From assembly GCF_055900595.2 (NCBI RefSeq), contig NZ_CM148325.1: a DNA stretch of 64,000 nt. One strand, 5' to 3'. The translations under genes and the position numbers were made by a program. Positions 14,947 to 64,000 of this stretch are shown here, piece by piece. The stretch's first letter is position 1; each line of letters opens with the position of its first letter. The notes under the pieces were generated by a model. The model was not told where the DNA came from and made no database searches. It worked only from the letters and a program-made list of their open reading frames with translations.

Positions 14947-15150
<204 letters not shown>

Positions 15151-17425: not shown

Positions 17426-17480
17426 CAAATGCTCCAGATATCTGCGCACCGTTAAGTACGCAGAAAGATAATAAATGGAT

Positions 17481-17605
17481 ATACTCTAAATAATTCGAGT
17501 TGCAGGAAGGCGGCAAGCGAGTGAATCCCCAGGAGCTTACATAAGTAAGTGACTGGGGTGAGCGAACGCAGACGCAGCACATGCAACTTGAAGTATGACG
17601 AGTAT
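17481..17605. repeat. ERIC (intergenic repeat unit) element
   Basis: Imperfect palindrome ATACTCTAAATAATTCGAGTTGCAGGAAGGCGGCAAGCGAGTGAATCCCCAGGAGCTTACATAAGTAAGTGACTGGGGTGAGCG... Confidence 0.7.
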
Positions 17606-17607
17606 AT

Positions 17608-39080: not shown

Positions 39081-39432
39081 GAATAGCAAAAAAGCGCCTT
39101 TAGGGCGCTTTTTTTACATTGGTGGGTCGTGCAGGATGACTCGCTTCGCTCGCCCTTCGGGCCGTCGCCGCGAGCGGCTCCGTTGTTTCGCTACGCTCAA
39201 CTCGAACCTGCTGCAGGTTCGAATCTTTGAATATCCCAGATAGCAAAAAAGCGCCTTTAGGGCGCTTTTTTACATTGGTGGGTCGTGCAGGATGACTCGC
39301 TTCGCTCGCCCTTCGGGCCGTCGCCGCGAGCGGCTCCGTTGTTTCGCTACGCTCAACTCGAACCTGCTGCAGGTTCGAATCTTTGAATATCCCAGATAGC
39401 AAAAAAGCGCCTTTAGGGCGCTTTTTTTACAT
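39081..39432. repeat. Tandem ~156-bp repeats downstream of the tRNA operon, each with a terminator hairpin and a tRNA-Lys 3-prime-end fragment
   Basis: AAAAAAGCGCCTTTAGGGCGCTTTTTT plus TGGTGGGTCGTGCAGGATGACTCG... repeated with period ~156 bp. Confidence 0.6.
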
Positions 39433-39508
39433 TGGTGGGTCGTGCAGGATTCGAACCTGCGACCAATTGATTAAAAGTCAACTGCTCTACCAACTGAGCT
39501 AACGACCC
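39433..39508 (-). tRNA. lysQ: tRNA-Lys (UUU)
   Basis: 76-nt match to tRNA-Lys, anticodon loop CTTTTAA, CCA encoded. Confidence 0.9.
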
Positions 39509-39640
39509 CTTGCGGGATTATGCTGCTTTAATCATTCAGGATGGTGGGTCGTGCAGGATGACTCGACTTCGTCTCGCCCTTCGGGCCGTTGCTGACGCAA
39601 CGTTATCCTTCACGTTCTCTACCAGTAACCACCTTTAAAT

Positions 39641-39716
39641 TGGTGGGTCGTGCAGGATTCGAACCTGCGACCAATTGATTAAAAGTCAACTGCTCTACCA
39701 ACTGAGCTAACGACCC
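39641..39716 (-). tRNA. lysZ: tRNA-Lys (UUU)
   Basis: Identical 76-nt tRNA-Lys copy. Confidence 0.9.
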
Positions 39717-39862
39717 ATACGGGTGTTACCTGAATGATTTCTACTCGGAACCAATCTTTAAGATTAGTGGGTCGTGCAGGATGACTCGCTTCGCTCGCCC
39801 TACGGGCCGTTGCTGACGCATCGTTATCCTTCACGCTTAACATCTGAGTTTGATGTTAAAAC

Positions 39863-39938
39863 TGGTGGGTCGTGCAGGATTCGAACCTGCGACCAATTGA
39901 TTAAAAGTCAACTGCTCTACCAACTGAGCTAACGACCC
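39863..39938 (-). tRNA. lysY: tRNA-Lys (UUU)
   Basis: Identical 76-nt tRNA-Lys copy. Confidence 0.9.
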
Positions 39939-39941
39939 GAG

Positions 39942-40017
39942 TGGTGGGTGATGACGGGATCGAACCGCCGACCCCCTCCTTGTAAGGGAGGTGCTCTCCC
40001 AGCTGAGCTAATCACCC
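39942..40017 (-). tRNA. valZ: tRNA-Val (UAC)
   Basis: 76-nt tRNA, anticodon TAC. Confidence 0.9.
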
Positions 40018-40068
40018 GATACTGCGCTGGATACTACAAACTACTTCCACCGAACCCACCGTAATTAG

Positions 40069-40144
40069 TGGTGGGTCGTGCAGGATTCGAACCTGCGACC
40101 AATTGATTAAAAGTCAACTGCTCTACCAACTGAGCTAACGACCC
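40069..40144 (-). tRNA. lysW: tRNA-Lys (UUU)
   Basis: Identical 76-nt tRNA-Lys copy. Confidence 0.9.
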
Positions 40145-40146
40145 GG

Positions 40147-40222
40147 TGGTGGGTGATGACGGGATCGAACCGCCGACCCCCTCCTTGTAAGGGAGGTGCT
40201 CTCCCAGCTGAGCTAATCACCC
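40147..40222 (-). tRNA. valT: tRNA-Val (UAC)
   Basis: 76-nt tRNA, anticodon TAC. Confidence 0.9.
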
Positions 40223-40357
40223 GATACTGCGCTGGATACTACAACTAACTAGGTTAGTGGTGGGTCGTGCAGGATGACTCGACTTCGTCTCGCCCTTCGG
40301 GCCGTTGCTGACGCAACGTTATCCTTCACGTTTTACTACCGCTTCCACCTTAGCGAT

Positions 40358-40433
40358 TGGTGGGTCGTGCAGGATTCGAACCTGCGACCAATTGATTAAA
40401 AGTCAACTGCTCTACCAACTGAGCTAACGACCC
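40358..40433 (-). tRNA. lysT: tRNA-Lys (UUU)
   Basis: Identical 76-nt tRNA-Lys copy, promoter-proximal. Confidence 0.9.
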
Positions 40434-40597: not shown

Positions 40598-41389
40598 TTA
40601 CATCGCGTTCAGACGTTTTTGTGCCTGTTTAGCGCCATCAGTACCAGGGTATTTACTGATAACCTGCTGGTATACGGCTTTCGCTTTTGCGGTGTCACCT
40701 TTGTCCTGCATGATGACGCCGACTTTAAACATCGCATCTGCAGCCTTCGGTGACTTCGGATAGTTTTTCACTACCGAAGCAAAATAATACGCCGCATCAT
40801 CTTTTTTACCCTTGTTGTAGTTTAACTGACCCAGCCAATAATTGGCGTTTGGCAGGTAAGTTGAATCAGGGTAATTTTTGATGAAATTCTGAAATGCCAC
40901 CATTGCGTCATCCTGGCGGGATTTATCCTGCACCAGCGCAATAGCTGCATTGTAATCCGTGTTTGCATCACCGCTTTTCACCGGCGCGCCAGCATTCGCA
41001 GTACCAGCATCAGCTGTCGGCGTCGTTGATGCCGCCGCACCGCTATGATCGCCGCTGGTTGATTGCGCCGCTGCACCACCGCTGCTGAGGCTATCGATCT
41101 GCAACAGGATCTGCTTTTGCCGCTCCACGACCTGATTCAGTTGATACTGATTTTCCTGAATCTGACCACGCAGGGAATCAATATCGGATTGATTATCAGA
41201 GAGTTGTTGCTGGAGTTGGGTTAAAAGCTGGCTGTGAGCATTAGAAATACGCTCAAGTTGAGTGACGCGGTCTTCGACCGAGCCTGAGCCGACACTACTG
41301 ATTGGTGCCTGAGCAAAAGCGGCCCAGGGGGCCGCTATACCAACCAGTAACGACAGACTCAATAGTTGATGTCTGAAGTTACTGCTCAT
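40598..41389 (-). CDS. cpoB: Cell division coordinator CpoB (YbgF)
   Basis: Signal peptide, coiled coil, C-terminal TPR; last gene of tol-pal. Confidence 0.88.
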   Translation of the reverse strand: MSSNFRHQLLSLSLLVGIAAPWAAFAQAPISSVGSGSVEDRVTQLERISNAHSQLLTQLQQQLSDNQSDIDSLRGQIQENQYQLNQVVERQKQILLQIDSLSSGGAAAQSTSGDHSGAAASTTPTADAGTANAGAPVKSGDANTDYNAAIALVQDKSRQDDAMVAFQNFIKNYPDSTYLPNANYWLGQLNYNKGKKDDAAYYFASVVKNYPKSPKAADAMFKVGVIMQDKGDTAKAKAVYQQVISKYPGTDGAKQAQKRLNAM

Positions 41390-41398
41390 GCAATTCTC

Positions 41399-41944
<546 letters not shown>

Positions 41945-47960: not shown

Positions 47961-49529
47961 TTAGCGTGCCGGCTGAGTAGTCGTGGAAGACTGCTCAAAG
48001 TGATAGCGACCGGTTTTCAGGCTGCTTGGGCCGAGGCGTGCAAACTTGAACATTAAGAACAATTCTGCCACCAGGAACAGGGTATACAGGCCACAAATCA
48101 GCACCATCGAGAAGATGAGGTCGCCTGCGGTCAGTGACGAGTTCGCTACAGCTGTCGGCAGCACTTCACCGATAGCCCAAGGTTGGCGACCATATTCAGC
48201 CACGAACCAGCCCGCTTCTACAGCAATCCACGGCAGCGGAATACCGTACAGTGCGGCGCGCAGCAGCCATTTTTTCTCGCCAATACGGTTGCGGATGACA
48301 CTCCAGAAAGAGAGCGCGATGATTGCCAGCAGCAGGAAGCCACACGCCACCATGATACGGAACGCGAAGTACAGCGGCGCTACACGTGGAATGGAGTCTT
48401 TGGTTGCCTGTTGAATCTGCGCTTCAGTTGCATCCGCCACGTTTGGCGTATAGCGTTTCAGCAGCAGACCGTAACCGAGGTCTTTCTTCATGCTATTGAA
48501 CTGGTCACGAACCGCCTGGTCAGTAGAACCAGAACGCAGTTGCTCGAGCAGAGAGTACGCCTTCATCCCGTTACGGATGCGTTCTTCATGCTGCACCATC
48601 AGCTCTTTCAGGCCGATAACCGGGGTATCCACGGAACGCGTTGCAATGATGCCCAGCGCGTAAGGGATCTGGATCGCAAATTTGTTCGTCTCCTCTTCCT
48701 GATCAGGAATGCCGAACAGAGTAAAGGCAGCAGGTGCAGGTTGCGTTTCCCACTCGGCTTCAATAGCAGCCAGTTTGGTTTTCTGCACGTCGCCCATTTC
48801 ATAACCAGATTCATCACCCAGAACAATAACAGACAGAACGGCAGCCATACCGAAGCTGGCAGCGATAGCAAAGGAGCGTTTAGCAAAGGCGAAGTCACGA
48901 CCTTTCAACATATACCATGCGCTGATACCGAGGATGAACATCGCGCCAGTCACATAACCAGACGCTACAGTGTGAACGAATTTCACCTGAGCAACCGGGT
49001 TAAGCACCAGCTCGGAGAAGCTCACCATCTCCATACGCATAGTTTCAAAGTTGAAATCGGATGCGATTGGGTTTTGCATCCAGCCGTTCGCAACCAGAAT
49101 CCACAGTGCGGACAGGTTTGAACCAAGCGCCACCAGCCAGGTGACACACATATGCTGAACTTTACCCAGACGATCCCAACCGAAGAAGAACAGACCTACA
49201 AAGGTGGATTCGAGGAAGAAGGCCATCAGACCTTCGATTGCCAGCGGCGCACCGAAGATATCCCCTACATAGTGGGAATAGTAAGACCAGTTAGTCCCGA
49301 ACTGGAACTCCATGGTCAGACCGGTTGCCACACCCAGAGCGAAGTTGATACCAAACAACTTGCCCCAGAACTTGGTCATATCTTTATAAATCTGTTTGCC
49401 GGAAAGGACGTAGACCGTTTCCATAATGGCCAGCAGGAACGCCATACCGAGCGTCAGTGGCACAAAAAGGAAGTGGTACATCGCGGTCAAGGCAAACTGT
49501 AAGCGCGACAGTTCGACTATATCTAACAT
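47961..49529 (-). CDS. cydA: Cytochrome bd-I oxidase subunit I
   Basis: 522 aa from [24 protein letters not shown]. Confidence 0.93.
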
Positions 49530-49866
49530 CATGACTCCTTGCTCATCGCATGAAGACTCCGAGAGTGAACCCCGTTAGAAAGGGTCACACGCATGCCCCA
49601 ATACAAAATTATTTGCTCGCCTCTATCGCTGTCTTTTCCTCAAAAGTGGAAAAGACAATGATAAAAAAGTTACAAATATGTTAATGAATAAACCAAATTG
49701 ATCCCGTAATTATATTACGCCGCAAAATCCTTACAATAAACAGGTTTTTATTGAGCAAATTTGCATTTTTCGACAGTGATCAATTTATAGCGAAATTGTC
49801 ACGCCCCCACCAATTTGATCTACGACAATTTATCGTGTTTTGCAGATTTTTTTCAAGAATTAAAAA

Positions 49867-49880
49867 TTGATTAATATCAA
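49867..49880. promoter_or_regulatory. FNR-type box in the cydA upstream regulatory region
   Basis: TTGATTAATATCAA (TTGAT-N4-ATCAA) inside the long AT-rich cydA leader. Confidence 0.5.
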
Positions 49881-50332
49881 AATCAATCGAATATGTTAAT
49901 TATGTATAAATCATAGACCATTGGTAATTTTATTGTTAATTTATTGTGAAATATTTACGTAACACAATTATTACAATAAAAAGACATAGATAAAAAACCA
50001 GTGTTTTATTTAACAGAATCGCCTTATCAACTTTTTATAATACCAATTGATTAGAGTAGCCAATTTGTTGCTATTTTACATAACATATTTTTATCAAAGT
50101 TAATTGATTGTTGCCTTTATGAGCATCGCCGTAAGACCGCCATGTTATTGTTTCATTTGTAATAATCACCAATAAGTATCGATGAGAGAGATATCGCTTA
50201 ACAGAGGCGACTGTGTCTGCATGAACACAGGCACTTTCGTCTGATAAACGAAAAATGAGCGATTTTTGCAAGTTAGTTTTTCTATAGCCGGGTACGCTGA
50301 GCGCCTCGCTTGATTACAATGAGGTTGCTGCC

Positions 50333-51277
50333 ATGGGTCTTGATAATATAGGTTATGTTGTCAATCGCTTCTCTGGTTGGCCATCAAATGATCCTCTAAA
50401 AACAGATAACGAATCAATGACATCACCCGTGACTGTGCAGGTAATAAAGTTGATTGCCGCCATCCTTGACCCACATCGGATAGTCGTTGGTATCGATACA
50501 CTTTATACAACGCAGCGCAAAACATTTACCTCAGAGGGTCAACAACTCATTGAATCAGCATTGAAAACACTTAATGTGATGAATTTAAATAACCTGGAAA
50601 CAGATCGCGATGAGGAGGGTAACTATCTGGCTTTTGGATATAACGTTGACACTCCTGACAGAATAACCGTTTCTGCTTATAATGAAAAAAAACCTTTCTG
50701 TTATGGCCAATGTCTTTTAATACAGGATGAAGAACCAGATTTATTTAACCTGGTAAAAATTAAAACCTTTGAAGCCAGGCATAATTATGTTTCTAAATTG
50801 ATGAGCGATCCGGAATTTATGTTTAAATTCAGTTATAGCACCCAACAAAATAGATTAGAACCTCATCTTCTGGTTCCCACTTATTTCCCTCTAAAAACAA
50901 ACCAACCGGTTACGCTAGAGGATGTACTGATACTTTATCGTTTCTTTAAAATGAATGGCGATTTTAATATATTAACATCAGATGAATACATGAGTATCAT
51001 GACACCTCTGATGAAGTGTGAGCGTAGTGTCCACGACCATAACAGGTATGTGACGGGCAAAGATGCTCTTCTTCTGGACAATCCTCCGTCTGGTAACCAG
51101 ATATATTTCCATATTTCCCCTGACGAATCAGCAACACTTGTCCTTTATTTTTCAGACAATAACCTTGAATCCTTCGTCTTTGAAAATGATATTCCGAGCC
51201 AGTATCGACATTTCAAAATGTTTACCAATTTAGCACTAGTTATTGATCAGTTAACCGACGCCAATCAAATACTTTAA
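50333..51277 (+). CDS. Hypothetical protein (314 aa), AT-rich
   Basis: Long ORF with GAGGT SD; no recognised motif, TM segment or signal peptide. Confidence 0.6.
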   Translation: MGLDNIGYVVNRFSGWPSNDPLKTDNESMTSPVTVQVIKLIAAILDPHRIVVGIDTLYTTQRKTFTSEGQQLIESALKTLNVMNLNNLETDRDEEGNYLAFGYNVDTPDRITVSAYNEKKPFCYGQCLLIQDEEPDLFNLVKIKTFEARHNYVSKLMSDPEFMFKFSYSTQQNRLEPHLLVPTYFPLKTNQPVTLEDVLILYRFFKMNGDFNILTSDEYMSIMTPLMKCERSVHDHNRYVTGKDALLLDNPPSGNQIYFHISPDESATLVLYFSDNNLESFVFENDIPSQYRHFKMFTNLALVIDQLTDANQIL

Positions 51278-51356
51278 TTTTCTATACAGCCCTGTGTAAA
51301 ATATTGCTAATCAGTGCCCGGGGTTGATTTTTATTCCTCACGGTGATATTTAAATC

Positions 51357-51779
51357 ATGACCCCATCTCAGCTCTCTTTTAATACTCTTCCTGTCAATGC
51401 AACATGCACTTCAGAGATAACAGTAAACACACAAAAATTCTCTGACATCCTCTACTCAGTGGGGTATTCCCTAAAGGATCTGGCTTATCTGAGCAGATGT
51501 CTTGCATCATTACACCCGACACTCGCCAAAAACATTTATGAAACGGAAAATCTCAGCGATCAAAAATTACTTTATATAGATTGCCGTAGTACAAATGAAA
51601 TCAAGATAAATATCTTTTTTGGTCAGCAACGAGAAGGATTAATTGAAATTAGTTCTGACACAGTCATTTTTTCGATACTGTCTTCATTGATTGACTCAGC
51701 TATTTCTGAACATCGACATCAAATCACCATTAACGATTCAAATAATTCTGAACTATTTTATGAGGATTATACTGATTAA
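51357..51779 (+). CDS. Hypothetical protein (140 aa), AT-rich
   Basis: ORF directly downstream of the 314-aa ORF, same strand; no recognised motif. Confidence 0.55.
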   Translation: MTPSQLSFNTLPVNATCTSEITVNTQKFSDILYSVGYSLKDLAYLSRCLASLHPTLAKNIYETENLSDQKLLYIDCRSTNEIKINIFFGQQREGLIEISSDTVIFSILSSLIDSAISEHRHQITINDSNNSELFYEDYTD

Positions 51780-52321
51780 ATCCACTCTGTGCGAACCTGT
51801 CCTGCATTTATGCCAGAAGTATTAGAATCTTTGATTAACGTTACTCGTACTGGTAGCACCTTCATGTGCCTCTCTTTTTTACGAACAATCAAAAGAACTA
51901 ACAAAGGGCATAATTCGTATAAATCATTAACCATTTGTTATATTCAACATTTTTTTACATTAAGCAGAGATGAATTGCAGTGAAATTCAAGTTAAATTTT
52001 ACAAAATGTATTACTCATGGCTAAAAAATCTCCCCAAAATGCAAATTAGAAGTTGATCACAATTATCTCAATACATCAAATAAAGTTAATTTTAAAAATT
52101 TAACATTCATGACATTAGTTGACATAACACGCTGAATTAAAATGAGAATTTAAAAACACACTTTAAACAATCATTTCCCGAAAGACATTTTGAAAATAGA
52201 TCAATTGCAACATTACGGTCAGATAAAGACACTCCTCTGATATTAAACCTGTGCCGTTATGAACGGCCATAAATACGACGTGTGTAACTTAATTTACTCT
52301 CTGTCTTACAAAGGATTACCC

Positions 52322-52771
52322 ATGAAGAAAGCAACACTTGTGATTGGCGTTATTGGCGCGGACTGCCATGCAGTAGGCAATAAAGTTCTGGACCGCGTTT
52401 TTAGCAACCATGACTTCAGAGTCATTAATCTGGGCGTAATGGTCAGCCAGGACGAATATATTGATGCTGCCATTGAAACTGGCGCTGACGCGATTGTCGT
52501 CTCCTCTATCTATGGGCATGGCGATATCGATTGTCTGGGCATGCGCGAACGCTGCATCGAGCGTGGGCTGGGTAACATCCTGCTCTATGTGGGCGGTAAC
52601 CTGGTGGTCGGAAAACATGACTTCGCTGACGTGGAAACCAAGTTCAAAGAGATGGGATTTGATCGCGTCTTTTCCCCAAGTCATGACTTAGAAGATGTTT
52701 GTCAGCTGATGGCCCACGATATCAACCAACGTCATGACGTTGATACTCGCATTCTTGAAGAGGCAATCTGA
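52322..52771 (+). CDS. Glutamate mutase sigma (B12-binding) subunit
   Basis: 149 aa; cobalamin-binding DxHxxG motif (DCHAVG); followed by L and E subunits. Confidence 0.85.
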
Positions 52772-54159
52772 TGCAAATCGTCTCTGTCGATATTGGATCG
52801 ACGTGGACCAAAGCAGCCCTCTTCACCCGGGAGGGGGACGCGTTAACGTTGGTTAACCACGTTCTGACCCCAACCACCACCCATCATCTGGCGAAGGGGT
52901 TTTTCTCCAGCCTGGACCAGGTGTTAAACGTAGATGATGCCCTCCCCCTGTTAAACAGTGGTGAGGTTGCATTGAAGTATTCCTCCTCTGCCAAAGGTGG
53001 GCTGGCGGTTGCCGCAATGGGATTAGTGCCTTCTATCACTCTGGAAACCGCGAAAGTAACCGCTCACTCTGCGGGTGCTAAAATTGCGCAATATTACGCC
53101 TACAAGCTGAACCGCCGTGATATCCAGGCACTGGAAGAAACGCAGCCCGATATTCTCTTGTTCACCGGCGGCACCGACGGCGGAGAAGAAAGCTACGGAC
53201 TGAATAACGCCCGTGTGCTGGCAGAATCCAAACTCGACTGCGCCATTATTTATGCCGGAAACCGGGATATTCAGGACAAGGTGCAGGAGATCCTCGGGCA
53301 TAAAGACCTGACCATCGTCGACAACGTTCTGCCCGATCTTGACCATCCGAACCCTTTAGCTGCACGCCAGGCTATCTGCGACATATTCCTTAAACGCATC
53401 GTTAAAGGGAAAGGGCTGGATGTCATTGTTGATAAAACAGGCGAAGAACCAATGCCGACACCATGGACGGTCTTTGAACTGGTTAAGGCAATCAGTAACG
53501 TCGATCACAGCTGGAAAGAGTTCATGCTGATCGACATGGGCGGCGCAACCACCGATGTCTATTCCGCCTGTGCCAACACGCTCTCGCCCGACACTGTTTT
53601 ACATGGCGTACCGGAACCCTTCGTAAAACGGACGGTGGAAGGCGATCTGGGAATGCGCGTCTCGGCAATGGTGGTTGGTGAAAGTGCGAAAGAGTTAGTC
53701 AGTGTGAATTTTGCTCAGCAACCCGCACAGTTGGACGCTTTTTATCATTACCTCCGTCATCTAGTCGCTCATCCCGACTACTTACCCGCGAATGCAGATG
53801 AAAAATATTTCGATACCGTCCTGGCCGGACTGTGTGTGGGTTATGCCACCGAAAGACATGCGGGCACCAAAAAAGAGGTCTGCACCTGCGTCGGCAATGT
53901 CGATTTACAGATGGGACGTGACCTGACAACCGTGCGTAAAGTCGTGGGTTCCGGCGGATGGCTCTCGCGTGCCAGTCAGTTCGATATGCATCGCTGGTTG
54001 AAATACCGCGAGTTAAACGACGACGGTAAACGCATTCTCTTACCGACCGAATTTGAATATTACCGCGATTCCCGGGGGCTATTACCACTGCTGGCAAACG
54101 TCGCCAGAGTCGATCCGCTGGCCGCCGCGCGCACCAGTATTCAATGCTTAACCCTATAA
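52771..54159 (+). CDS. Glutamate mutase-associated L protein (MutL/GlmL-type ATPase chaperone)
   Basis: 462 aa, ASKHA-type N-terminus (VDIGSTWTKAA), between S and E subunits. Confidence 0.8.
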   Translation: MQIVSVDIGSTWTKAALFTREGDALTLVNHVLTPTTTHHLAKGFFSSLDQVLNVDDALPLLNSGEVALKYSSSAKGGLAVAAMGLVPSITLETAKVTAHSAGAKIAQYYAYKLNRRDIQALEETQPDILLFTGGTDGGEESYGLNNARVLAESKLDCAIIYAGNRDIQDKVQEILGHKDLTIVDNVLPDLDHPNPLAARQAICDIFLKRIVKGKGLDVIVDKTGEEPMPTPWTVFELVKAISNVDHSWKEFMLIDMGGATTDVYSACANTLSPDTVLHGVPEPFVKRTVEGDLGMRVSAMVVGESAKELVSVNFAQQPAQLDAFYHYLRHLVAHPDYLPANADEKYFDTVLAGLCVGYATERHAGTKKEVCTCVGNVDLQMGRDLTTVRKVVGSGGWLSRASQFDMHRWLKYRELNDDGKRILLPTEFEYYRDSRGLLPLLANVARVDPLAAARTSIQCLTL

Positions 54160-54177
54160 CAATTAAGGCTGCAATCA

Positions 54178-55623
54178 ATGGAACTTCGAAATAAGAAATT
54201 AACCCATGACGAATTCATGACCGAGCGGCAACAGGTATTGAAAACCTGGGAAACCGGCAAGGATGTTGAAAACTTTGAAGATGGCGTTAAATACCAACAA
54301 ACCATTCCTGAGCATAAACGCTTCTCTCTTGCCCTGCTGAAAGCAGACAAGGAAGGTAAAACCCTTAGCCAACCGCGCGCAGGCGTGGCGCTGATGGACG
54401 AACACATCGAACTACTGAAAACACTACAAGAAGAGTGCGATCTGCTGCCGAGCACTATCGATGCATATACCCGTCTGAATCGGTACGAAGAAGCGGCTGT
54501 AGGGATTAAAAAATCCATCGAAGCCAGAACCTCTAAACTGAACGGTTTACCGGTAGTTAACCACGGCGTCGCAGCTTGCCGTCGCCTCACCGAAACTCTG
54601 CAAAAACCGCTACAGATCCGCCACGGCACGCCAGATGCGCGTCTGCTGGCTGAAATCTCGATGGCCAGCGGCTTTACCAGTTATGAAGGCGGCGGCATTT
54701 CCTACAATATTCCGTATGCCAAGCGCGTAACGCTGGAAAAATCGATCCGCGACTGGCAGTACTGCGATCGTTTAATGGGGATGTACGAAGAACACGGGAT
54801 CCGCATCAACCCCGAACCGTTTGGCCCACTAACGGGTACGCTGATCCCGCCGTTTATCTCGCACTCTATCGCAATAATCGAAGGCTTGCTGGCACTGGAA
54901 CAGGGTGTGAAGTCTATCACCGTTGGTTATGGTCAGGTCGGTAGCCTGACGCAGGATGTTGCGGCGATCCAGTCTCTGCGGGAACTTGCACACGAATACT
55001 TTCAGAGCTATGGCTATACCGACTACGAATTAAGTACCGTGTTTCACCAGTGGATGGGCGGCTTTCCGGAAGACGAATCGAAAGCGTTCGCCATTATCTC
55101 CTGGGGTGCTGCCGTCGCGGGGATGTCTGGTGCTACCAAAGTCATCACCAAAAGTCCGCACGAAGCCTGGGGCATCCCGACTGCTGCTGCCAACATTCAG
55201 GGGCTAAAAGCCTCCCGCCAGATGCTCAACATGGTCAACGAGCAGAAATTCCCGCCGTGCCCGGCGGTTGAACTAGAAATTGAACTGATTAAGAGCGAGG
55301 TTCGCGCGGTACTGAACAAAGTGTTCGAACTGGGTAATGGTGATATTGCGCGCGGTACGGTGCTGGCATTTGAAGCGGGCGTACTGGATGTGCCGTTTGC
55401 GCCAGCCGCCTGCAACGCAGGCAAAATTCTTCCGGTCCGTGACAACACTGGCGCGATTCGCGTACTGGAGGCCGGAGCCGTTCCATTGCCAAAAGATATT
55501 CTCGACCTCCACCACGATTACGTTGCTGAACGCGCGCGCTTTGAAGGACGCCAACCGACATTCCAGATGGTTGTAGATGACATCAATGCTGTATCCCACA
55601 GTAAATTAATAGGAAGACCATAA
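54178..55623 (+). CDS. glmE: Glutamate mutase epsilon (catalytic) subunit
   Basis: 481 aa, TIM-barrel mutase signature; coupled to methylaspartase. Confidence 0.88.
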   Translation: MELRNKKLTHDEFMTERQQVLKTWETGKDVENFEDGVKYQQTIPEHKRFSLALLKADKEGKTLSQPRAGVALMDEHIELLKTLQEECDLLPSTIDAYTRLNRYEEAAVGIKKSIEARTSKLNGLPVVNHGVAACRRLTETLQKPLQIRHGTPDARLLAEISMASGFTSYEGGGISYNIPYAKRVTLEKSIRDWQYCDRLMGMYEEHGIRINPEPFGPLTGTLIPPFISHSIAIIEGLLALEQGVKSITVGYGQVGSLTQDVAAIQSLRELAHEYFQSYGYTDYELSTVFHQWMGGFPEDESKAFAIISWGAAVAGMSGATKVITKSPHEAWGIPTAAANIQGLKASRQMLNMVNEQKFPPCPAVELEIELIKSEVRAVLNKVFELGNGDIARGTVLAFEAGVLDVPFAPAACNAGKILPVRDNTGAIRVLEAGAVPLPKDILDLHHDYVAERARFEGRQPTFQMVVDDINAVSHSKLIGRP

Positions 55624-56864
55624 TGAAAATAAAACAGGCCCTTTTTACCGCTGGCTACTCCTCATTCTATTTCGATGATCAGCAGGCGATAAAAAACGGA
55701 GCGGGTCACGACGGTTTTTTTTATACCGGGGAGCCAGTAACACAGGGGTTTAACGCCGTACGTCAGGCCGGGGAGTGCGTTTCGGTTCAGTTGATTCTGG
55801 AAAACGGTGCGGTCGCCGTAGGCGACTGTGCTGCCGTACAGTATTCCGGGGCAGGTGGTCGCGATCCACTGTTCCTCGCAGAGCACTTTATTCCGTTCCT
55901 CAACGACCATATCAAGCCATTACTGGTAGGCCGCGATGTGGATGCTTTCCTGCCGAATGCCCGTTTCTTCGACAAATTGCGTATTGACGGCAACTTGCTA
56001 CATACCGCCGTGCGCTACGGATTATCACAGGCGCTGCTTGATGCTACCGCGCTGGCAACCGGCCGTCTGAAAACTGAAGTGGTCTGTGATGAATGGCAGT
56101 TGCCACGCGTGGCGGAATCCATTCCATTATTTGGTCAGAGCGGCGACGATCGATATATCGCTGTCGATAAGATGATCCTTAAGGGCATCGACGTGCTGCC
56201 CCATGCGCTGATTAATAACGTCGAAGAGAAACTGGGCTTTAAAGGTGAAAAACTGCGCGAATATGTCCGCTGGCTGTCGGATCGCATTCTGAGCAAGCGC
56301 ACCAGCGCACGCTACCACCCTACCCTGCACATCGATGTATACGGCACTATTGGTCTGATCTTCGATATGGATCCGCTTCGCTGTGCGCAATACATCGCCA
56401 GTCTGGAAAAAGAGGCGCAAGGCCTGCCGCTCTACATTGAGGGGCCGGTCGATGCCGGTAACAAGCCCGATCAAATCCGCCTGCTGACCGCGATTACCAA
56501 AGAGCTGACGCGCCTCGGTTCCGGCGTGAAAATCGTGGCCGATGAATGGTGTAACACCTACCAGGATATTGTTGATTTCACTGATGCCGCCAGTTGCCAC
56601 ATGGTGCAAATCAAAACCCCGGATCTGGGCAGTATTCACAACATCGTCGATGCAGTTCTTTATTGCAACAGCCACAGCATGGAAGCGTACCAGGGCGGCA
56701 CCTGCAATGAAACTGATGTCAGTGCCCGCACCTGTGTCCACGTCGCCCTTGCTGCTCGCCCCATGCGTATGCTGGTAAAACCAGGGATGGGCTTTGACGA
56801 AGGCCTCGATATCGTCTTCAACGAAATGAATCGTACTATCGCGCTGTTGCAGGCTAAGGATTAA
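55623..56864 (+). CDS. 3-methylaspartate ammonia-lyase (enolase superfamily)
   Basis: 413 aa; start overlaps glmE stop. Confidence 0.88.
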   Translation: MKIKQALFTAGYSSFYFDDQQAIKNGAGHDGFFYTGEPVTQGFNAVRQAGECVSVQLILENGAVAVGDCAAVQYSGAGGRDPLFLAEHFIPFLNDHIKPLLVGRDVDAFLPNARFFDKLRIDGNLLHTAVRYGLSQALLDATALATGRLKTEVVCDEWQLPRVAESIPLFGQSGDDRYIAVDKMILKGIDVLPHALINNVEEKLGFKGEKLREYVRWLSDRILSKRTSARYHPTLHIDVYGTIGLIFDMDPLRCAQYIASLEKEAQGLPLYIEGPVDAGNKPDQIRLLTAITKELTRLGSGVKIVADEWCNTYQDIVDFTDAASCHMVQIKTPDLGSIHNIVDAVLYCNSHSMEAYQGGTCNETDVSARTCVHVALAARPMRMLVKPGMGFDEGLDIVFNEMNRTIALLQAKD

Positions 56865-56867
56865 CAA

Positions 56868-58238
56868 ATGGCTCGTTCTTTTAAAGTCTTATCGCCAACG
56901 GCAATCCTCGGGTATGGATTCCCGGAAGAGAGCTTCCGCAAAGCGATGGCAGAATCGCCCGATCTGATCGCCGTTGATGCAGGCTCTTCCGATCCTGGCC
57001 CCCACTACCTCGGGGCGGGCAAACCGTTTACCGATCGCGCAGGGGTCAAGCGCGATCTACGCTATATGATCACCGCAGGCGTGCAAAATAATATACCGGT
57101 AGTGATCGGAACGGCCGGCGGTTCTGGTGCCGCTCCACACCTGGAGTGGTGCCGAGAAATAATTCATGAGATTGCCCGGGAAGAGCACCTCGCGTTCTCG
57201 ATGGCGCTGATCCCGGCAGACGTTGACAAAGCCATCGTCCACCAGGCGCTGGATAACGGCAAAATCACGGCGCTGGATTTTGTCCCGCCGTTAACCCACG
57301 ACGCGATTGACGAAAGTACGTATATCGTCGCGCAAATGGGCATCGAACCCTTCCAGCAGGCGCTGAAAGAAGGCGCGCAAGTGGTGCTGGGCGGGCGCGC
57401 TTACGACCCGGCCTGCTTTGCTGCGCTACCGATCATGCAAGGCTTTGATGAAGGTCTGGCGCTGCATTGTGGGAAAATCCTTGAATGCGCGGCAATCGCC
57501 GCAACGCCCGGCTCAGGCTCTGACTGTGCGATGGGCATCATTGATGACAACGGCTTTACGCTGAAGACATTTAATCCGAAGCGTAAATTTACCGAAACGT
57601 CAGCGGCTGCACACACACTGTATGAGAAATCCGATCCCTACTTTCTGCCAGGACCTGGCGGCGTGCTAAACCTGAAAGGTTGCACATTTAAAGCGATCAA
57701 TGATGGCGAAGTTTACGTCAGCGGTTCTAAGCATGAAGAAACGCCCTATGCCCTGAAACTGGAAGGTGCGCGGCGGGTGGGTTTCCGCTGTTTGACCATC
57801 GCCGGAACGCGCGACCCGATCATGATCGCCGGGATCGATAACATCATCGATGAAGTCAAAACCAGCGTTTCGCGTAATCTGTCCTTAGACGATGACAGCA
57901 TTCGCATCAATTTCCACCTGTACGGCAAAAACGGGGTGATGGGCGACCATGAACCGATGCAAACTGCCGGGCATGAGCTGGGGATTGTCCTTGATGTAGT
58001 TGCACCGACCCAGGATATTGCCAATAGCGTTTGCTCGCTGGTGCGCTCTACCATGCTGCACTACGGCTATGAAAACCGCATCGCTACCGCAGGCAACCTG
58101 GCGTTCCCGTTCTCCCCTTCTGATATCCAGGGCGGGCCGGTATACGAATTTTCCATATATCACCTGATTGAAGCCAACGACGCTCTGCGTTTTGATTTCC
58201 ATATTGAACAGGTGACGCCAGAAGGAGTTCAGGCATGA
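56868..58238 (+). CDS. DUF1446 (AtuA-like) family protein, function unknown
   Basis: 456 aa; N-terminal pattern recalled for AtuA-like proteins; coupled to next ORF. Confidence 0.65.
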   Translation: MARSFKVLSPTAILGYGFPEESFRKAMAESPDLIAVDAGSSDPGPHYLGAGKPFTDRAGVKRDLRYMITAGVQNNIPVVIGTAGGSGAAPHLEWCREIIHEIAREEHLAFSMALIPADVDKAIVHQALDNGKITALDFVPPLTHDAIDESTYIVAQMGIEPFQQALKEGAQVVLGGRAYDPACFAALPIMQGFDEGLALHCGKILECAAIAATPGSGSDCAMGIIDDNGFTLKTFNPKRKFTETSAAAHTLYEKSDPYFLPGPGGVLNLKGCTFKAINDGEVYVSGSKHEETPYALKLEGARRVGFRCLTIAGTRDPIMIAGIDNIIDEVKTSVSRNLSLDDDSIRINFHLYGKNGVMGDHEPMQTAGHELGIVLDVVAPTQDIANSVCSLVRSTMLHYGYENRIATAGNLAFPFSPSDIQGGPVYEFSIYHLIEANDALRFDFHIEQVTPEGVQA

Positions 58239-58552
58239 AACAGTCAATTGTCTCACTGGCGCAAGTCATTCGTTCGAAAAATGCCGGACCTTACGAACTG
58301 GTTTTAGATATTTTATTTAAAACCAAAGAAAACTATGAGCGAGTAAAATCATCAGGGCAATTAACCCCAGAACTGATTGCGCGCTTATATCATGTTGAAC
58401 CTGACTTTATTCATCGTATTGTCTGGTTTGATCCTTCTAACGCAGTAAAAATTGTCATGCCACGAGATATTATCTCCGGGAATGTAGGTGACAATGATGT
58501 CTATGGCGCACAGCAACATGCACCTTTATTAAATATGAGTTTCGATTTGTAA
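58235..58552 (+). CDS. DUF4387-like small protein, partner of the DUF1446 protein
   Basis: 105 aa; start overlaps upstream stop. Confidence 0.55.
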   Translation: MKQSIVSLAQVIRSKNAGPYELVLDILFKTKENYERVKSSGQLTPELIARLYHVEPDFIHRIVWFDPSNAVKIVMPRDIISGNVGDNDVYGAQQHAPLLNMSFDL

Positions 58553-58712
58553 AAATCCGAACACTTTTAGCCAACTGACATCCCGTCACTTATTGCAGCT
58601 CAACACTTCAGCTATTTGTAAGGTTGTTATAGCAGGTAGATGCCTGAATCTCTATTCAGGCATCCACTTCTCCTGATTCTGATTTATCGCCGTGCACCTG
58701 ATGGAGGAAAAA

Positions 58713-59993
58713 ATGAAGAAAATAAGTTTAACCACGATGATTCTTTTGGCGCTGGTACTTGGAATGATTATCGGCGTAGTGCTCAATAACACTGCTTCAC
58801 CGGAAACAGCAAAACTCTATGCGCAAGAAATATCGATATTCACGACGATTTTCTTACGACTGATAAAAATGATTATCGCTCCGTTAGTGGTCTCTACCCT
58901 GGTGGTAGGTATTGCTAAAATGGGCGATGCCAAAGCCCTTGGTCGTATTTTTTCTAAAACACTCTTTTTATTTATTTGCGCCTCATTGCTGTCAATTGCC
59001 TTAGGCTTGATAACGGTAAATTTCTTCATGCCAGGCACAGGAATTAATTTTGTTGCACACGGTGCCGAAACCACCGGAGTGGTCGCGTCAGAACCCTTTA
59101 CACTAAAAGTATTTATTTCGCATGCTTTCCCCACCAGCATTGTCGATGCCATGGCGCACAATGAAATTTTGCAAATCGTGGTGTTCTCAATTTTCCTCGG
59201 CTGTAGCCTGACGGCGATTGGTGAGAAAGGCAGCGCCATCGTTCACGCCTTAGATTCGCTGGCACATGCCATGTTAAAGCTCACTGGCTACGTCATGCTC
59301 TTCGCTCCCCTGACCGTATTCGCCGCTATTTCAGCATTGATTGCTGAACGAGGACTGGCAGTTATGGTGAGCGCCGGGATCTTTATGGGTGAATTTTATT
59401 TCACCATGTTATTACTTTGGGTGCTGCTTATCGGTCTGGCCATCGTTTATGTCGGCCCCTGCATCAGACGCCTGACCCGCGCCCTTTCTGAACCCGCCCT
59501 GCTGGCATTTACCACATCCAGTTCTGAAGCTGCTTTTCCGGGAACGCTTGAAAAACTGGAGCAATTTGGCGTTTCCCCCAAAATTGCCAGCTTTGTCTTA
59601 CCCATTGGCTACTCATTTAATCTCGTTGGATCAATGGCCTACTGCTCCTTCGCCACAGTTTTCATCGCCCAGGCCTGCAATATCCATTTATCCATCGGTG
59701 AGCAAATCACCATGCTGTTGATCCTGATGTTGACCTCGAAAGGAATGGCTGGCGTACCACGCGCCTCAATGGTGGTTATCGCCGCCACGCTCAACCAGTT
59801 CAATATTCCGGAAGCGGGGCTGATCTTGCTGATGGGCGTTGATCCGTTCCTTGATATGGGGCGTTCCGCGACAAACGTCATGAGCAACGCAATGGGCGCT
59901 GCGATGGTGAGTCGGTGGGAAGGCGAACATTTCGGCGAGGGTTGTCGGGGTAAAGCATTAAAACCCAATGAATCGAACGTTGCTCTGCCCTGA
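58713..59993 (+). CDS. Dicarboxylate/amino acid:cation symporter (GltP/DctA family)
   Basis: GGAGG SD; polytopic membrane protein with DAACS-type motifs. Confidence 0.8.
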   Translation: MKKISLTTMILLALVLGMIIGVVLNNTASPETAKLYAQEISIFTTIFLRLIKMIIAPLVVSTLVVGIAKMGDAKALGRIFSKTLFLFICASLLSIALGLITVNFFMPGTGINFVAHGAETTGVVASEPFTLKVFISHAFPTSIVDAMAHNEILQIVVFSIFLGCSLTAIGEKGSAIVHALDSLAHAMLKLTGYVMLFAPLTVFAAISALIAERGLAVMVSAGIFMGEFYFTMLLLWVLLIGLAIVYVGPCIRRLTRALSEPALLAFTTSSSEAAFPGTLEKLEQFGVSPKIASFVLPIGYSFNLVGSMAYCSFATVFIAQACNIHLSIGEQITMLLILMLTSKGMAGVPRASMVVIAATLNQFNIPEAGLILLMGVDPFLDMGRSATNVMSNAMGAAMVSRWEGEHFGEGCRGKALKPNESNVALP

Positions 59994-60100
59994 GGGGGAT
60001 CTTAAGAAATCAGAAGCCAATGACTACGCATTTTTATAAGCCGGATCATGAAGTTAGACGGCAATTAAGTAACACTAACGTTTAAGGTGAAAAGTGAAAT

Positions 60101-61753
60101 ATGTCCAAACCATTTATCTGGCAAGAACCGTTTCTACAAAATAAAGACGGTACAGAATATACATTAATTAGCGATCAACATATTACAGTAACGGAATTAG
60201 ACGGCGAAGAAGTAATAAAAATCGCTCCTGAAGCATTAACGCTGCTTGCCCGGCAGGCATTTTATGAAGCCTCTTTTTTCTTACGTTCCGCTCATTTGCA
60301 ACAGGTCGCCAGCATTCTTAACGATCCGCAGGCCAGCAGTAATGATAAATACGTTGCGTTGCAGTTATTACGTAATGCTGAAGTCTCAGCAAAAGGGGTA
60401 TTACCCAACTGTCAGGATACCGGCACCGCAACTATTGTTGCCAGTAAAGGGCAACAGATATGGACGGGAGGTAACGACGCTGAAGCCTTAAGCAAAGGCA
60501 TTTACAGTACTTTCCAGGAAAATAATCTGCGCTTTTCACAAAATGCGCCGCTGGATATGTATACCGAAGTCAATACGCAAACCAATCTTCCGGCGCAGAT
60601 TGATATCAGCGCTGTCGCTGGTAATGAGTACCATTTTCTCTGTGTTAATAAAGGGGGCGGCTCCGCCAATAAAGCTGCACTTTATCAGGAAACCAAATCC
60701 TTATTGCAACCAGAAAAACTGACCGCATTTTTAATCGACAAAATGAAATCGTTGGGCACGGCCGCCTGCCCGCCCTACCACATCGCCTTTGTCGTCGGAG
60801 GGCTTTCAGCCGATCAAACCTTAAAAGTTGCCAAGCTGGCCTCTACGAAATATTACGACAATTTGCCCACCAGCGGAAACGAGCAGGGACAAGCATTCCG
60901 TGATATTGAGCTGGAAAAAGCGTTGCTCGAAGCCAGTCAGCAATTTGGTATTGGTGCGCAATTTGGGGGTAAATATTTCGCTCATGATATTCGCGTCATT
61001 CGTCTGCCGCGTCACGGTGGCTCCTGCCCGATAGCTATGGCGCTCTCCTGTTCTGCCGATCGCAATATCAAAGCCAAAATTAACAAGCACGGTATCTGGC
61101 TGGAAAAACTCGAACACAATCCGGGGCAATATATTCCAGCCTCATTGCGGGAAGAAAATCACTCGCTACATGTACACCTGGATCTAAACCGTCCGTTGCG
61201 TGACGTGATGCAGGATCTCGCCAGATTACCGGTAGGTACCCGCGTGTCGTTAAGTGGTCCCATCGTAGTGGCGCGCGATATCGCCCACGCAAAAATAAAA
61301 GCGCGGCTGGATAGCGGCGAATCGATGCCGGATTACCTGAAGCATCATATTGTCTATTACGCTGGCCCGGCGAAAACACCGGAGAACATGGCCTGCGGTT
61401 CACTGGGTCCAACCACGGGCGGTCGAATGGACGGTTATGTCGAAACCTTCCAGGCGGCTGGCGGCAGTCTGGTAATGTTATCGAAAGGTAACCGCAGCCA
61501 GCAGGTCACCGATGCCTGTCACAAACATGGCGGCTTCAATCTGGGAAGTATTGGCGGTGCAGCTGCGTTACTGGCGCAAGAATATGTCAAAAGTCTGCGT
61601 TGCCTGGAATACCCGGAGCTGGGTATGGAGGCGGTGTGGATGATGGAAGTGGAAAATCTGCCCGCATTCATCCTGGTTGATGATAAAGGCAATAATTTCT
61701 TTAGCCAGTTTGAGCAGCAACACCGCTGCGCCAGTTGCCCTGCGGGACATTAA
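60101..61753 (+). CDS. fumD: Class I (Fe-S) fumarate hydratase paralogue, likely mesaconase
   Basis: 550 aa, strongly FumA-like along full length; name fumD is from memory of the O157 mesaconase. Confidence 0.8.
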
Positions 61754-61762
61754 GGAAAATGA

Positions 61763-62365
61763 ATGGAAGCGCGAATTTCAACTGAACGGCATGTGCAGCG
61801 CCAGCAGAAATTGAAGGAACAGGTCGATACGCGCGTCGCGGCGGCGATAGAGAAAAAAGGGATCTTGATTGTTTTCACCGGCAACGGCAAAGGGAAATCC
61901 ACTGCCGCGTTTGGTACTGTAACGCGCGCGGTGGGCCATGGCAAAACGGTGGGGGTTGCGCAGTACATCAAGGGGCAATGGGACAACGGCGAATACAATC
62001 TTCTCCAGCCGCTGGGAGTGGAGTTTCATATTATGGGAACCGGTTTTACCTGGGAGACACAGAACCGGCAAGCGGATATCGATGCGGCGAAAGAGGTCTG
62101 GTCGGAAAGCAAACGGATGCTGGCTGACAAGCGTTACGACTTAGTGGTGCTTGATGAGCTCACCTATATGCTGGCTTACCATTATCTGGATACAGAAGAA
62201 GTGATCACTTCTCTGCAAAACCGTCCGGCACAACAAAGTGTCATTGTCACCGGACGCGGTTGCCACAGTCAGATATTAAAAATGGCGGATACGGTAAGTG
62301 AAATCCGCCCCGTCAAACATGCTTTTGATAACGGCATTCAGGCCCAGCCGGGGATCGACTGGTAA
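61763..62365 (+). CDS. Corrinoid adenosyltransferase (BtuR/CobA family)
   Basis: 200 aa; P-loop GNGKGKSTAAFG; strongly BtuR-like. Confidence 0.88.
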   Translation: MEARISTERHVQRQQKLKEQVDTRVAAAIEKKGILIVFTGNGKGKSTAAFGTVTRAVGHGKTVGVAQYIKGQWDNGEYNLLQPLGVEFHIMGTGFTWETQNRQADIDAAKEVWSESKRMLADKRYDLVVLDELTYMLAYHYLDTEEVITSLQNRPAQQSVIVTGRGCHSQILKMADTVSEIRPVKHAFDNGIQAQPGIDW

Positions 62366-62368
62366 TAA

Positions 62369-62400
62369 CTGCGCCTGGCATCCCGCCAGGCGCAGGTTTT
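62369..62400. terminator. Bidirectional terminator between convergent genes
   Basis: 10-bp stem CTGCGCCTGG/CCAGGCGCAG with T-run. Confidence 0.5.
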
Positions 62401-63304
62401 ACATCTCCTGCGGTACGACCGATTTCGCCAGCAACCATTCACGAAATTGCTGCAAGTGCGGAGAGTCAGACTTCTCTTCCTGCCACGTCATAATAAAACG
62501 ATTACCGGTACGAATAGGCACATCACAGGGAATCACCATATCGCCACTATCCAAATCATGTTGAATAGCGAACCGTGGTAACAGCGCCACGCCGAGATTA
62601 GAGCGCACGGCGGCAATCAGCATTGAAAGCAAATCGAAACGTGGTCCGTTATTGACCAGCGGACTGCTAACGCCAGATAAAGCAAACCACTCTTCCCAGC
62701 CAGTAATACGGGTGCTTTGATGCAGAAGTGGTAACTCAGTAAGCAGTTCTGCCACTGACAGTTTTTGATCGGACATTGCAAGCAAACTGCCGCTGCATAC
62801 CGGCAAAATCTCCTCTTCAAAGAGATATTCTACTTCCGCCCAGGGCGCGCAAAAATTTTCGCGCATAATGACAGCATCGTACTCCCGATTAAGAAAATCG
62901 CCGTTATTAGCTAAAGAATGAATATTAACAATAATATCGGGATGTAACTTTGTGAATTCATGTAAATTTGGGATTAACCAGTGGGTACTAAAAGTAGGAT
63001 TAACGGCAAGTTCAATAACCTGAACCGTAGGCTGCCATGTCATAATCGTATTGGTATCGCGCTCCAGCTTATTTAATGTTTCTTTTACTATCCCCAGGTA
63101 ATACTTCCCTGCATCATTAAGAAAAATGCGTTTTTTAGAGTGTGAAAATAACGGAGTATGTAAAAATTCCTCCAGCGCACTTACTTGTCTGAATACAGCA
63201 CTTTGGGTTAACGCTAACTCCTCTGCCGCTCTGGTATAACTTTCATGTCGTGCGACGACCTCAAAAGTCACCAGCAGCTCCGTTTTAGGTATTTTTCCTC
63301 GCAT
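62399..63304 (-). CDS. LysR-family transcriptional regulator (likely regulator of the island operon)
   Basis: N-terminal HTH (ESYTRAAEELALTQSAVFRQV); start taken at second ATG. Confidence 0.8.
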   Translation of the reverse strand: MRGKIPKTELLVTFEVVARHESYTRAAEELALTQSAVFRQVSALEEFLHTPLFSHSKKRIFLNDAGKYYLGIVKETLNKLERDTNTIMTWQPTVQVIELAVNPTFSTHWLIPNLHEFTKLHPDIIVNIHSLANNGDFLNREYDAVIMRENFCAPWAEVEYLFEEEILPVCSGSLLAMSDQKLSVAELLTELPLLHQSTRITGWEEWFALSGVSSPLVNNGPRFDLLSMLIAAVRSNLGVALLPRFAIQHDLDSGDMVIPCDVPIRTGNRFIMTWQEEKSDSPHLQQFREWLLAKSVVPQEM

Positions 63305-63517
63305 AATGCCGTCCGTGAAAAAATAACAATTCAAAAATTATTTTATAAAAAACAGTAGCACTAATGAATATCATAATTCAAATAAACAAACCAGTCAGCT
63401 ATATGTCTAACCAGGAAAATAAAGTGACAATAATCCTAAAACAGGAATTTCACCTCAGTTATCCGCATGCAATACTTTAAAGCTATTATTGCAAGAATAT
63501 TATTCATATACATGAAT

Positions 63518-63641
63518 ATACTCTAAATAAGTCAAGTTGCAGGAAGGGAACAAATAATGAATATCCAGAAGCTTACATAAGTAAGTGACCTGGGTGAGCG
63601 AACATCGATGCAGCACATGCAACTTGAATTATGACAAGTAT
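63518..63641. repeat. ERIC element (second copy, with internal substitution/insertion)
   Basis: Shares both arms with the 17481..17605 copy. Confidence 0.65.
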
Positions 63642-63892
63642 ACAATGATAAATTTATATACCCTATGTTATATATTATCTATGTCCGGTTAAATTGAATG
63701 AGTCATAGCCTTAAAAGACTTCACAAAAGATAATTCCTCTTTAACAATAAGCCAGATTTACCACTTGTAAAACTTGCTATCGCTGCATACACTACGCGCG
63801 TTTTCTTTCCCTTTTGCTGGCTGCTGACCGGAAAGACAAAATTACCCTCGCAATACAGGGGGTTGATTAACGTCTATATTTCAGGACAGCGT

Positions 63893-64000
63893 TATGCATC
63901 ATCTTTCAAGGCTTGATAAAGCCTTTCTGCGCAAAGGGATCCAACTTTCCCGCGCCAACAATATTGTTTCATTATGTCGTCCATCAGGAGCCAGTGCCCG
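63893..64000 (+). CDS. Possible 5-prime end of an unidentified gene running off the window
   Basis: ATG with AGGA upstream and open frame to window end; not recognised. Confidence 0.25.

Follow-up and report, generated by a model that had tools for sequence, protein, structure and literature searches.

A decayed ERIC element lies inside an allele-specific spacer of the Escherichia coli sucD-cydA region and does not delimit the methylaspartate island

When a palindromic repeat stands just beyond the last gene of a metabolic island, does it mark the place where the island ends? ERIC (enterobacterial repetitive intergenic consensus) elements are non-autonomous, MITE-like palindromic repeats of enterobacteria, and one of them lies next to the lysR gene that closes the methylaspartate cluster in the stretch of 64,000 nucleotides analysed here (the window). 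The preliminary description took this copy for the right edge of the island and added that such repeats often coincide with insertion or deletion breakpoints. Here, we ask what the element is, where the breakpoints around it fall and whether it has contributed to the variation of this locus.

The window is E. coli DNA, virtually identical to that of strain Z0117EC0005 (record L001), in reverse orientation to K-12. According to the RefSeq annotation of Z0117EC0005, cydA is followed by two hypothetical genes, glmS-glmL-glmE, the methylaspartate ammonia-lyase gene (mal), an AtuA-like gene (atuA), a DUF4387 gene, a dicarboxylate/amino-acid symporter gene, a class I fumarase gene, cobO and lysR, after which come an AT-rich intergenic region with the ERIC, a paralogue of the RtcB family and sucD with its 3′ sRNA sdhX. 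At 39120-40433 and 41360-41498 on the minus strand, a cluster of seven matches to tRNAs, with five to RtT repeats in between, and a CpoB/ybgF thermometer presumably correspond to the cpoB and lysT-valT tRNA region of K-12 and confirm the orientation of the window. A match to the Rfam family naRNA4 (nucleoid-associated ncRNA 4; 71.9 bits) at 15000-15070, also on the minus strand, is what we take to be a REP-derived element. The stretch from 49500 to 52500, comprising the cydA upstream region and the two hypothetical genes, has a G+C content of 32-40%, as against about 52% in the methylaspartate genes. The features around the right end of the cluster are as follows.

62399..63304, minus strand: LysR-family regulator gene, last of the methylaspartate cluster (RefSeq annotation of the near-identical record)
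63323..63778: allele-specific AT-rich spacer of 456 bp carrying the ERIC, intact in 144 genomes and partial in 6
63517..63642: ERIC (IRU) element of 126 bp, oriented like the copy at 17481-17605; G+C content 37%, middle stem degraded
63779..63894, plus strand: conserved region upstream of rtcB, common to hut-type genomes and a cryptic-clade Escherichia
63895..64000, plus strand: 5′ end of the RtcB-family paralogue, which extends past the end of the window to the sdhX terminator, at about 65291

The genes lysR and rtcB are divergent, with the ERIC between them in a 565-bp, AT-rich intergenic region (lysR starts at 63304, rtcB at 63870 or 63895). The placement of the element just beyond lysR in the preliminary description is accurate: it begins 213 bp upstream of the lysR ATG, and it is more than 210 bp from the start codons of both genes. 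The open reading frames overlapping it are of 35-40 aa only; those of the spacer measure 20-40 aa, and none reaches beyond the AT-rich spacer or the ERIC.

Some details of the flanking genes deserve mention. The rtcB paralogue probably starts with the ATG at 63895, as judged from sequence comparison: at 63870-63872 the window reads ACG, as do the other genomes examined, in which rtcB is annotated with 1398 bp and not 1422 bp, which fits this start, and Z0117EC0005 has an ATG there that is annotated as the start of the gene. The same difference means that the window comes from a very close relative of Z0117EC0005 and not from that exact record. Some 90 bp at 63779-63869 are highly conserved among ERIC-type genomes, hut-type genomes and a cryptic-clade Escherichia, everything further upstream being replaced, and may hold a promoter or operator of the rtcB paralogue. 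In strain A34 the lysR beside the ERIC is annotated as an incomplete pseudogene, and O169:H41 has ATT in place of the ATG at 63895, both of which suggest that the genes beside the element are decaying in some lineages.

The ERIC family, also called IRU or RU-1, is said to have been described by Sharples & Lloyd in 1990 and by Hulton et al. in 1991, and has thus reportedly been known since 1990-91. For comparison with the copy beside lysR, the window provides a canonical element, and the parts of the two that matter here are given below.

17480..17606: canonical ERIC copy of 127 bp used as reference, between ybhI and ybhJ
63517..63523: left terminal inverted repeat, TATACTC, beginning with TA
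63579..63600, plus strand: conserved ERIC core (ERIC2-primer motif), with 2 mismatches
63636..63642: right terminal inverted repeat, AAGTATA (canonical GAGTATA)

The copy beside lysR had been placed correctly to within a single base, since its true ends, 63517 and 63642, lie one base beyond 63518-63641 on either side. It reads TATACTCTAAATAAGTCAAGTTGCAGG...GCAACTTGAATTATGACAAGTATA, that is, TATACTC...AAGTATA, its terminal inverted repeats being complementary at six of seven bases and ending in 5′-TA-3′. The ERIC2-primer motif AAGTAAGTGACTGGGGTGAGCG is matched at 20 of 22 bases at 63579-63600, and 100 shuffles gave no matches to this motif by chance. Scanning for the complement of the ERIC1R primer site gave more than 3 mismatches, and comparison of the two copies puts the number at 4. 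Primer-motif scans detected only two ERIC copies within the 64-kb window, the other one, at 17481-17605, lying between the core genes ybhI and ybhJ and being unrelated to the island. As had been noted, the two have diverged internally: they align over their full length with 89% identity (the mean column identity over aligned 151-base stretches containing both copies), and their differences cluster in two internal arms and enrich for AT, the G+C content being 48% in the canonical copy and 37% in the copy beside lysR. With the 126-bp sequence as query, end-to-end ERIC matches of about 85% identity (E about 1e-30), well above anything that chance would give, were found in 5425 of 5426 complete E. 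coli genomes, and ERICs are dispersed over 30,766 places in these 5425 genomes (median 6 and maximum 11 per genome, at E <= 1e-5). Rfam at its gathering thresholds returned nothing at the ERIC locus; under permissive thresholds the sole match, at 63516-63638, was a full-length one to RF02818 (V_AS5, Vibrio RNA AS5) with 18.6 bits against a cut-off of 96, and this Vibrio family may be an ERIC-like repeat. The sequence at 63517-63642 is a genuine, decayed member of the ERIC family.

Having established what the element is, we turn to where the breakpoints lie. In pairwise blastn between Z0117EC0005 and K-12 (L001 versus L003), the segment differing from K-12 is delimited by L001 positions 7911 and 23285, which correspond to window positions 49911 and about 65284.

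49911..64000: in-window part of the segment differing from K-12, the whole of which spans about 49911-65284

This segment holds the two hypothetical genes, the methylaspartate cluster, lysR, the ERIC spacer and rtcB, in place of which K-12 has mngRAB. The breakpoints of a second island-free genome, SSGw2 (TPR type), lie at 50176 and about 65288, the right one being L001 23289. The right breakpoint against island-free genomes thus coincides with the stop codon of rtcB and the sdhX terminator, outside the window and 1.64 kb to the right of the ERIC. Among island carriers, breakpoints beside lysR fall at about 63315-63322 and about 63779, those of the hut type being at L001 21323 and 21780 (window 63322 and 63779). 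The ends of the ERIC are 194 bp (left) and 136 bp (right) from the borders of this replaced patch, so that the element lies inside the patch and not at its border.

These alignments bear directly on the earlier view, in which the ERIC would be the right boundary of the island and the site of its insertion or of its recombinational joining to the core genome. That view is understandable, given that the element sits in the first intergenic region past the last gene of the methylaspartate cluster, that the lysR-rtcB intergenic region does vary between genomes, and that one deletion endpoint, described below, is 10 bp from the ERIC; moreover, the part of PMC3184786 concerned with a Xenorhabdus region reports that ERIC-like repeats have been proposed to add to its plasticity. 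However, island-free genomes regain homology only at the sdhX terminator, 1.64 kb further right, the hut-type and O157-type breakpoints are 194 bp and 136 bp off the ends of the element, and the variable part of the chromosome also takes in rtcB, on the right of the ERIC. Contradicted by the alignments of K-12, SSGw2, 24AR0376 and O157, and failing the test that the preliminary description itself proposed, in which a breakpoint away from the ERIC would refute it, the boundary view is extremely improbable. The ERIC does not delimit the island: relative to genomes that lack the island, its right edge lies past rtcB, at the sdhX terminator.

The chromosome between sucD and cydA is variable and built of modules, the combination of which differs among E. 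coli genomes. The modules seen are the two hypothetical genes, the methylaspartate cluster, a hut (histidine-utilisation) cluster, rtcB, mngRAB and a TPR pseudogene, in the following combinations.

K-12: mngR-mngA-mngB only
SSGw2 / APEC type: TPR pseudogene
O157: island, then a remnant of the hut cluster (HAL gene) and a truncated rtcB, without the ERIC
24AR0376 and PRO_A-1534: island, six-gene hut cluster and intact rtcB
This window: island, ERIC spacer and intact rtcB
JNE23-011, DCE7 and DETEC-S792: truncated glmE joined to the ERIC, then rtcB and mngBAR

K-12 and the JNE23 type agree in the coordinate at which the mngRAB module is joined, L001 23285. The annotations of the Z0117EC0005, O157, JNE23-type and hut-type records show no transposase genes within the interval. 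Beyond the window, the sucB-sucC intergenic region (L001 25474-25670) is unalignable between genomes and has repeated copies of 80-94% identity in record L006, which suggests a variable array of the REP/BIME type.

Within this region, the 456-bp spacer at 63323-63778 is opposed in most other island carriers by an 8.6-kb hut cluster or its remnant (blastn of L001 against the hut-type record L007, megablast ends), the hut filling being L007 17606-26241. The left boundary of the spacer is about 10-18 bp upstream of the lysR ATG, and, being so near to it, leaves the two alleles with wholly different lysR promoter regions. The LysR protein itself, WP_022645384.1, is identical in GF4-3 (ERIC type) and PRO_A-1534 (hut type), from which we infer that the ERIC spacer and the hut cluster, as two alternative fillings between lysR and rtcB, would have replaced one another through homologous recombination in the conserved flanks on the lysR and rtcB sides. 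We considered the possibility that the window allele is a simple deletion of the hut cluster and rejected it, because O157, which is such a derivative, keeps about 90% identity to the hut-type spacer, whereas the window spacer does not.

Where the spacer comes from was approached by comparison with its counterparts. Under permissive scoring, its left part gave a weak collinear alignment, running across the ERIC site, with the spacer upstream of lysR in O157 and in a cryptic-clade Escherichia (z 4.2-5.6); at the ERIC site itself, CATGAA-TA-CAATGATAAA stands against TGTGGA-TA-TTATGATAAA in O157. A profile search with nhmmer returned the same ERIC-site region as its top window match, but with E = 0.4, MAFFT did not align the window spacer convincingly with those of O157 and the hut type, and strict local alignment of these spacers yielded nothing above shuffles. 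The homology of the left spacer to the O157/hut-type spacer is, on this sequence comparison, suggestive. The right spacer (63643-63778) matches none of the compared spacers. A scan for RtcB paralogues with one genome per species yielded no donor for the ERIC spacer and brought up just two loci, one in a hut-type metagenome-assembled genome and one in a cryptic-clade Escherichia (with the hut genes deleted from the spacer), neither of which carries the ERIC.

How widespread this variant of the ERIC is, and whether it has moved recently, can be read from its distribution. It is present in 150 of the 5426 complete E. coli genomes, 144 of which have it contiguous with both flanks and 6 of which are of the deletion type; wherever both flanks occur (144 genomes) the ERIC is there as well, and no genome has the variant at another place. 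When the flanks were joined without the ERIC and used as query, this sequence was covered to at least 80% in 144 genomes, and all of the matches listed were in two pieces spanning about 421 and 126 bp, so that no empty site appeared among the matches listed from the 5426 genomes searched. Nor was a close ERIC-free version of the 456-bp spacer found in these 5426 genomes. Close relatives show no difference in presence or absence at the same site, the pattern by which a recently mobile MITE would be recognised.

The sequence of the element tells a similar story of age. Carriers of the ERIC allele differ by up to 5% across the locus, and, in a comparison of six divergent carriers, variable columns make up 11% of the ERIC, 6-8% of the spacer flanks and about 6% of the adjacent coding DNA. 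The ERIC therefore varies at least as fast as its flanks and bears no sign of purifying selection. The divergence of the carriers, the variability of the ERIC and its universal presence together indicate that the copy is old and fixed within the allele, with no sign of recent mobility. When folded as RNA, it reaches -33.4 kcal/mol (z -4.6), and -32.8 kcal/mol (z -3.8) on the other strand, as against -52.6 kcal/mol (z -7.9) for the canonical copy; its outer and central stems still fold on both strands. The changes in the arms run towards AT and are non-compensated, and it is because they are not compensatory that the middle stem of the hairpin has been lost.

It is against this background that a function of the element as cis-regulatory RNA has to be weighed. 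The ERIC might be transcribed in the leader of lysR or rtcB, or might earlier have been transcribed in the 3′ region of the hut operon, its hairpin altering mRNA stability. There is a precedent in Yersinia, where ERICs are co-transcribed with their neighbours and have an orientation-dependent effect on mRNA stability, according to the passages of PMC2229807 that cite De Gregorio 2005, and such a role would be in keeping with the position between the divergent lysR and rtcB, with weak promoter-like matches that flank and overlap the element, and with its retention in 144 of 144 intact carriers of the allele. Against it, the element varies faster than its flanks, with uncompensated stem changes and no sign of purifying selection; the distance to either start codon exceeds 210 bp, conservation ahead of rtcB sets in only 136 bp downstream of the ERIC, in a stretch that ERIC-free genomes have as well, and the five promoter matches are little in excess of shuffled sequence (2.6 +/- 1.4). 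Taken together, these points would make a regulatory role very unlikely.

The second claim of the preliminary description, that such repeats coincide with insertion or deletion breakpoints, finds a single supporting case: one deletion, found in six genomes, ends 10 bp from the ERIC, and the other breakpoint classes lie away from it.

54664..63506: deleted segment of 8,843 bp in 6 genomes (JNE23-011, DCE7, DETEC-S792 and others)

The deletion, present in 6 of the 5426 genomes, extends from the middle of glmE to 10 bp left of the ERIC. Its junction reads CGATG-TG-TATACATG (with a longer right side, ...CGATG-TG-TATACATGAATATACTC); it contains two filler bases and lacks microhomology. JNE23-011, DCE7 and DETEC-S792, the three genomes examined, have exactly the same junction, which points to a single event. 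We estimate the chance that a random endpoint in the 565-bp intergenic region falls within 10 bp of an ERIC end at about 7%. The deletion would fit an attraction of breakpoints to palindromic repeats, without demonstrating it.

Could the ERIC, or its AT-rich flank, then be a fragile site, at which a hairpin or cruciform stalls replication or attracts nucleases and so promotes an illegitimate deletion from glmE to lysR? The endpoint 10 bp from the left end of the element, the same in all three genomes examined, the six genomes in the deletion class, the filler bases without microhomology that are expected of illegitimate end joining, and the remaining ability of the element to form a long hairpin would all agree with this. 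On the other side, the identical junction speaks for one event of single origin, proximity of this order would arise by chance in about 7% of cases in an intergenic region of this size, three other classes of breakpoint in the region avoid the ERIC, and the hairpin is weakened (-33 versus -53 kcal/mol); we therefore regard a fragile site as unlikely. The broader claim, that the ERIC or the adjacent AT-rich DNA is a local hotspot of illegitimate recombination that seeded the 8.8-kb deletion and may also have seeded the replacement of the hut cluster by the spacer, strikes us as having only a slight chance of being right.

We consider it likely that the ERIC is an old, fixed and neutrally decaying MITE-like relic, passive in an allele-specific spacer, that neither delimits nor created the island. 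This reading builds on the identity and position of the element, the breakpoints around it and its presence in every carrier of the allele, all of which are observed directly. The remaining steps are conditional: the TATA ends and the weak alignment with the hut-type spacer suggest that the ERIC would have inserted at a TA dinucleotide long ago, and the copy would now be without function. The one deletion that ends 10 bp from the element in six genomes does leave room, against a wholly passive role, for a local effect on illegitimate recombination.

Comparison with known systems places the locus among familiar things. The glutamate-fermentation cluster of E. coli O157:H7 is reportedly credited to Kato & Asano 1997. 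In the window, as in O157:H7, the cluster comprises glmS/L/E, the methylaspartate ammonia-lyase gene, a DUF1446/AtuA-like gene, a glutamate/dicarboxylate symporter gene, the gene of the class I fumarase FumD, a cobalamin adenosyltransferase gene and a LysR-type regulator gene; the difference is that lysR is followed in O157:H7 by the hut remnant and a truncated rtcB, without the ERIC, and in the window by the ERIC spacer and an intact rtcB. A LysR-type regulator (LTTR) is included in the published description of this O157:H7 methylaspartate (mesaconate) cluster (Kronen & Berg 2015, PMC4682846). As regards the repeat, the family features used here are those given in PMC2229807 and PMC3184786, Table 1 of the former listing a 7-bp terminal repeat and 5′TA3′ ends. 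The copy beside lysR resembles the family, with its length of about 127 bp, imperfect palindrome, conserved core with the ERIC2 motif and 7-bp terminal inverted repeats with TA ends, in lying outside genes and in having several dispersed copies per E. coli genome. Unlike the family type, it has 126 bp, 37% G+C, and neither the middle stem nor the ERIC1R primer site, and this variant occurs only in one allele of a variable locus, carried by 150 of 5426 genomes. The features that set its sequence apart from a canonical ERIC are of decay, not of kind.

A parallel is offered by Locus D of Xenorhabdus, where, in the part of PMC3184786 that cites Ogier et al. 2010, ERIC-like repeats are connected with genome plasticity. 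As far as that account goes, the two loci are alike in having an ERIC in a highly variable chromosomal interval, with one deletion ending beside the ERIC in our case, and differ in that the interval studied here is without annotated transposase genes and has its main module boundaries off the ERIC. Both the ERIC family and the methylaspartate cluster have already been described, and the ERIC copy itself is ordinary.

What the analysis changes, then, is the picture of the locus: the right edge of the island lies outside the window, and the ERIC is carried as a passenger in a spacer specific to one allele. Should the doubtful hotspot reading prove true, ERICs would help to reshuffle metabolic modules in E. 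coli. The view of the sucD-cydA interval as a set of exchangeable modules is more informative than the ERIC itself, and may help pangenome work on metabolic variation in this species.
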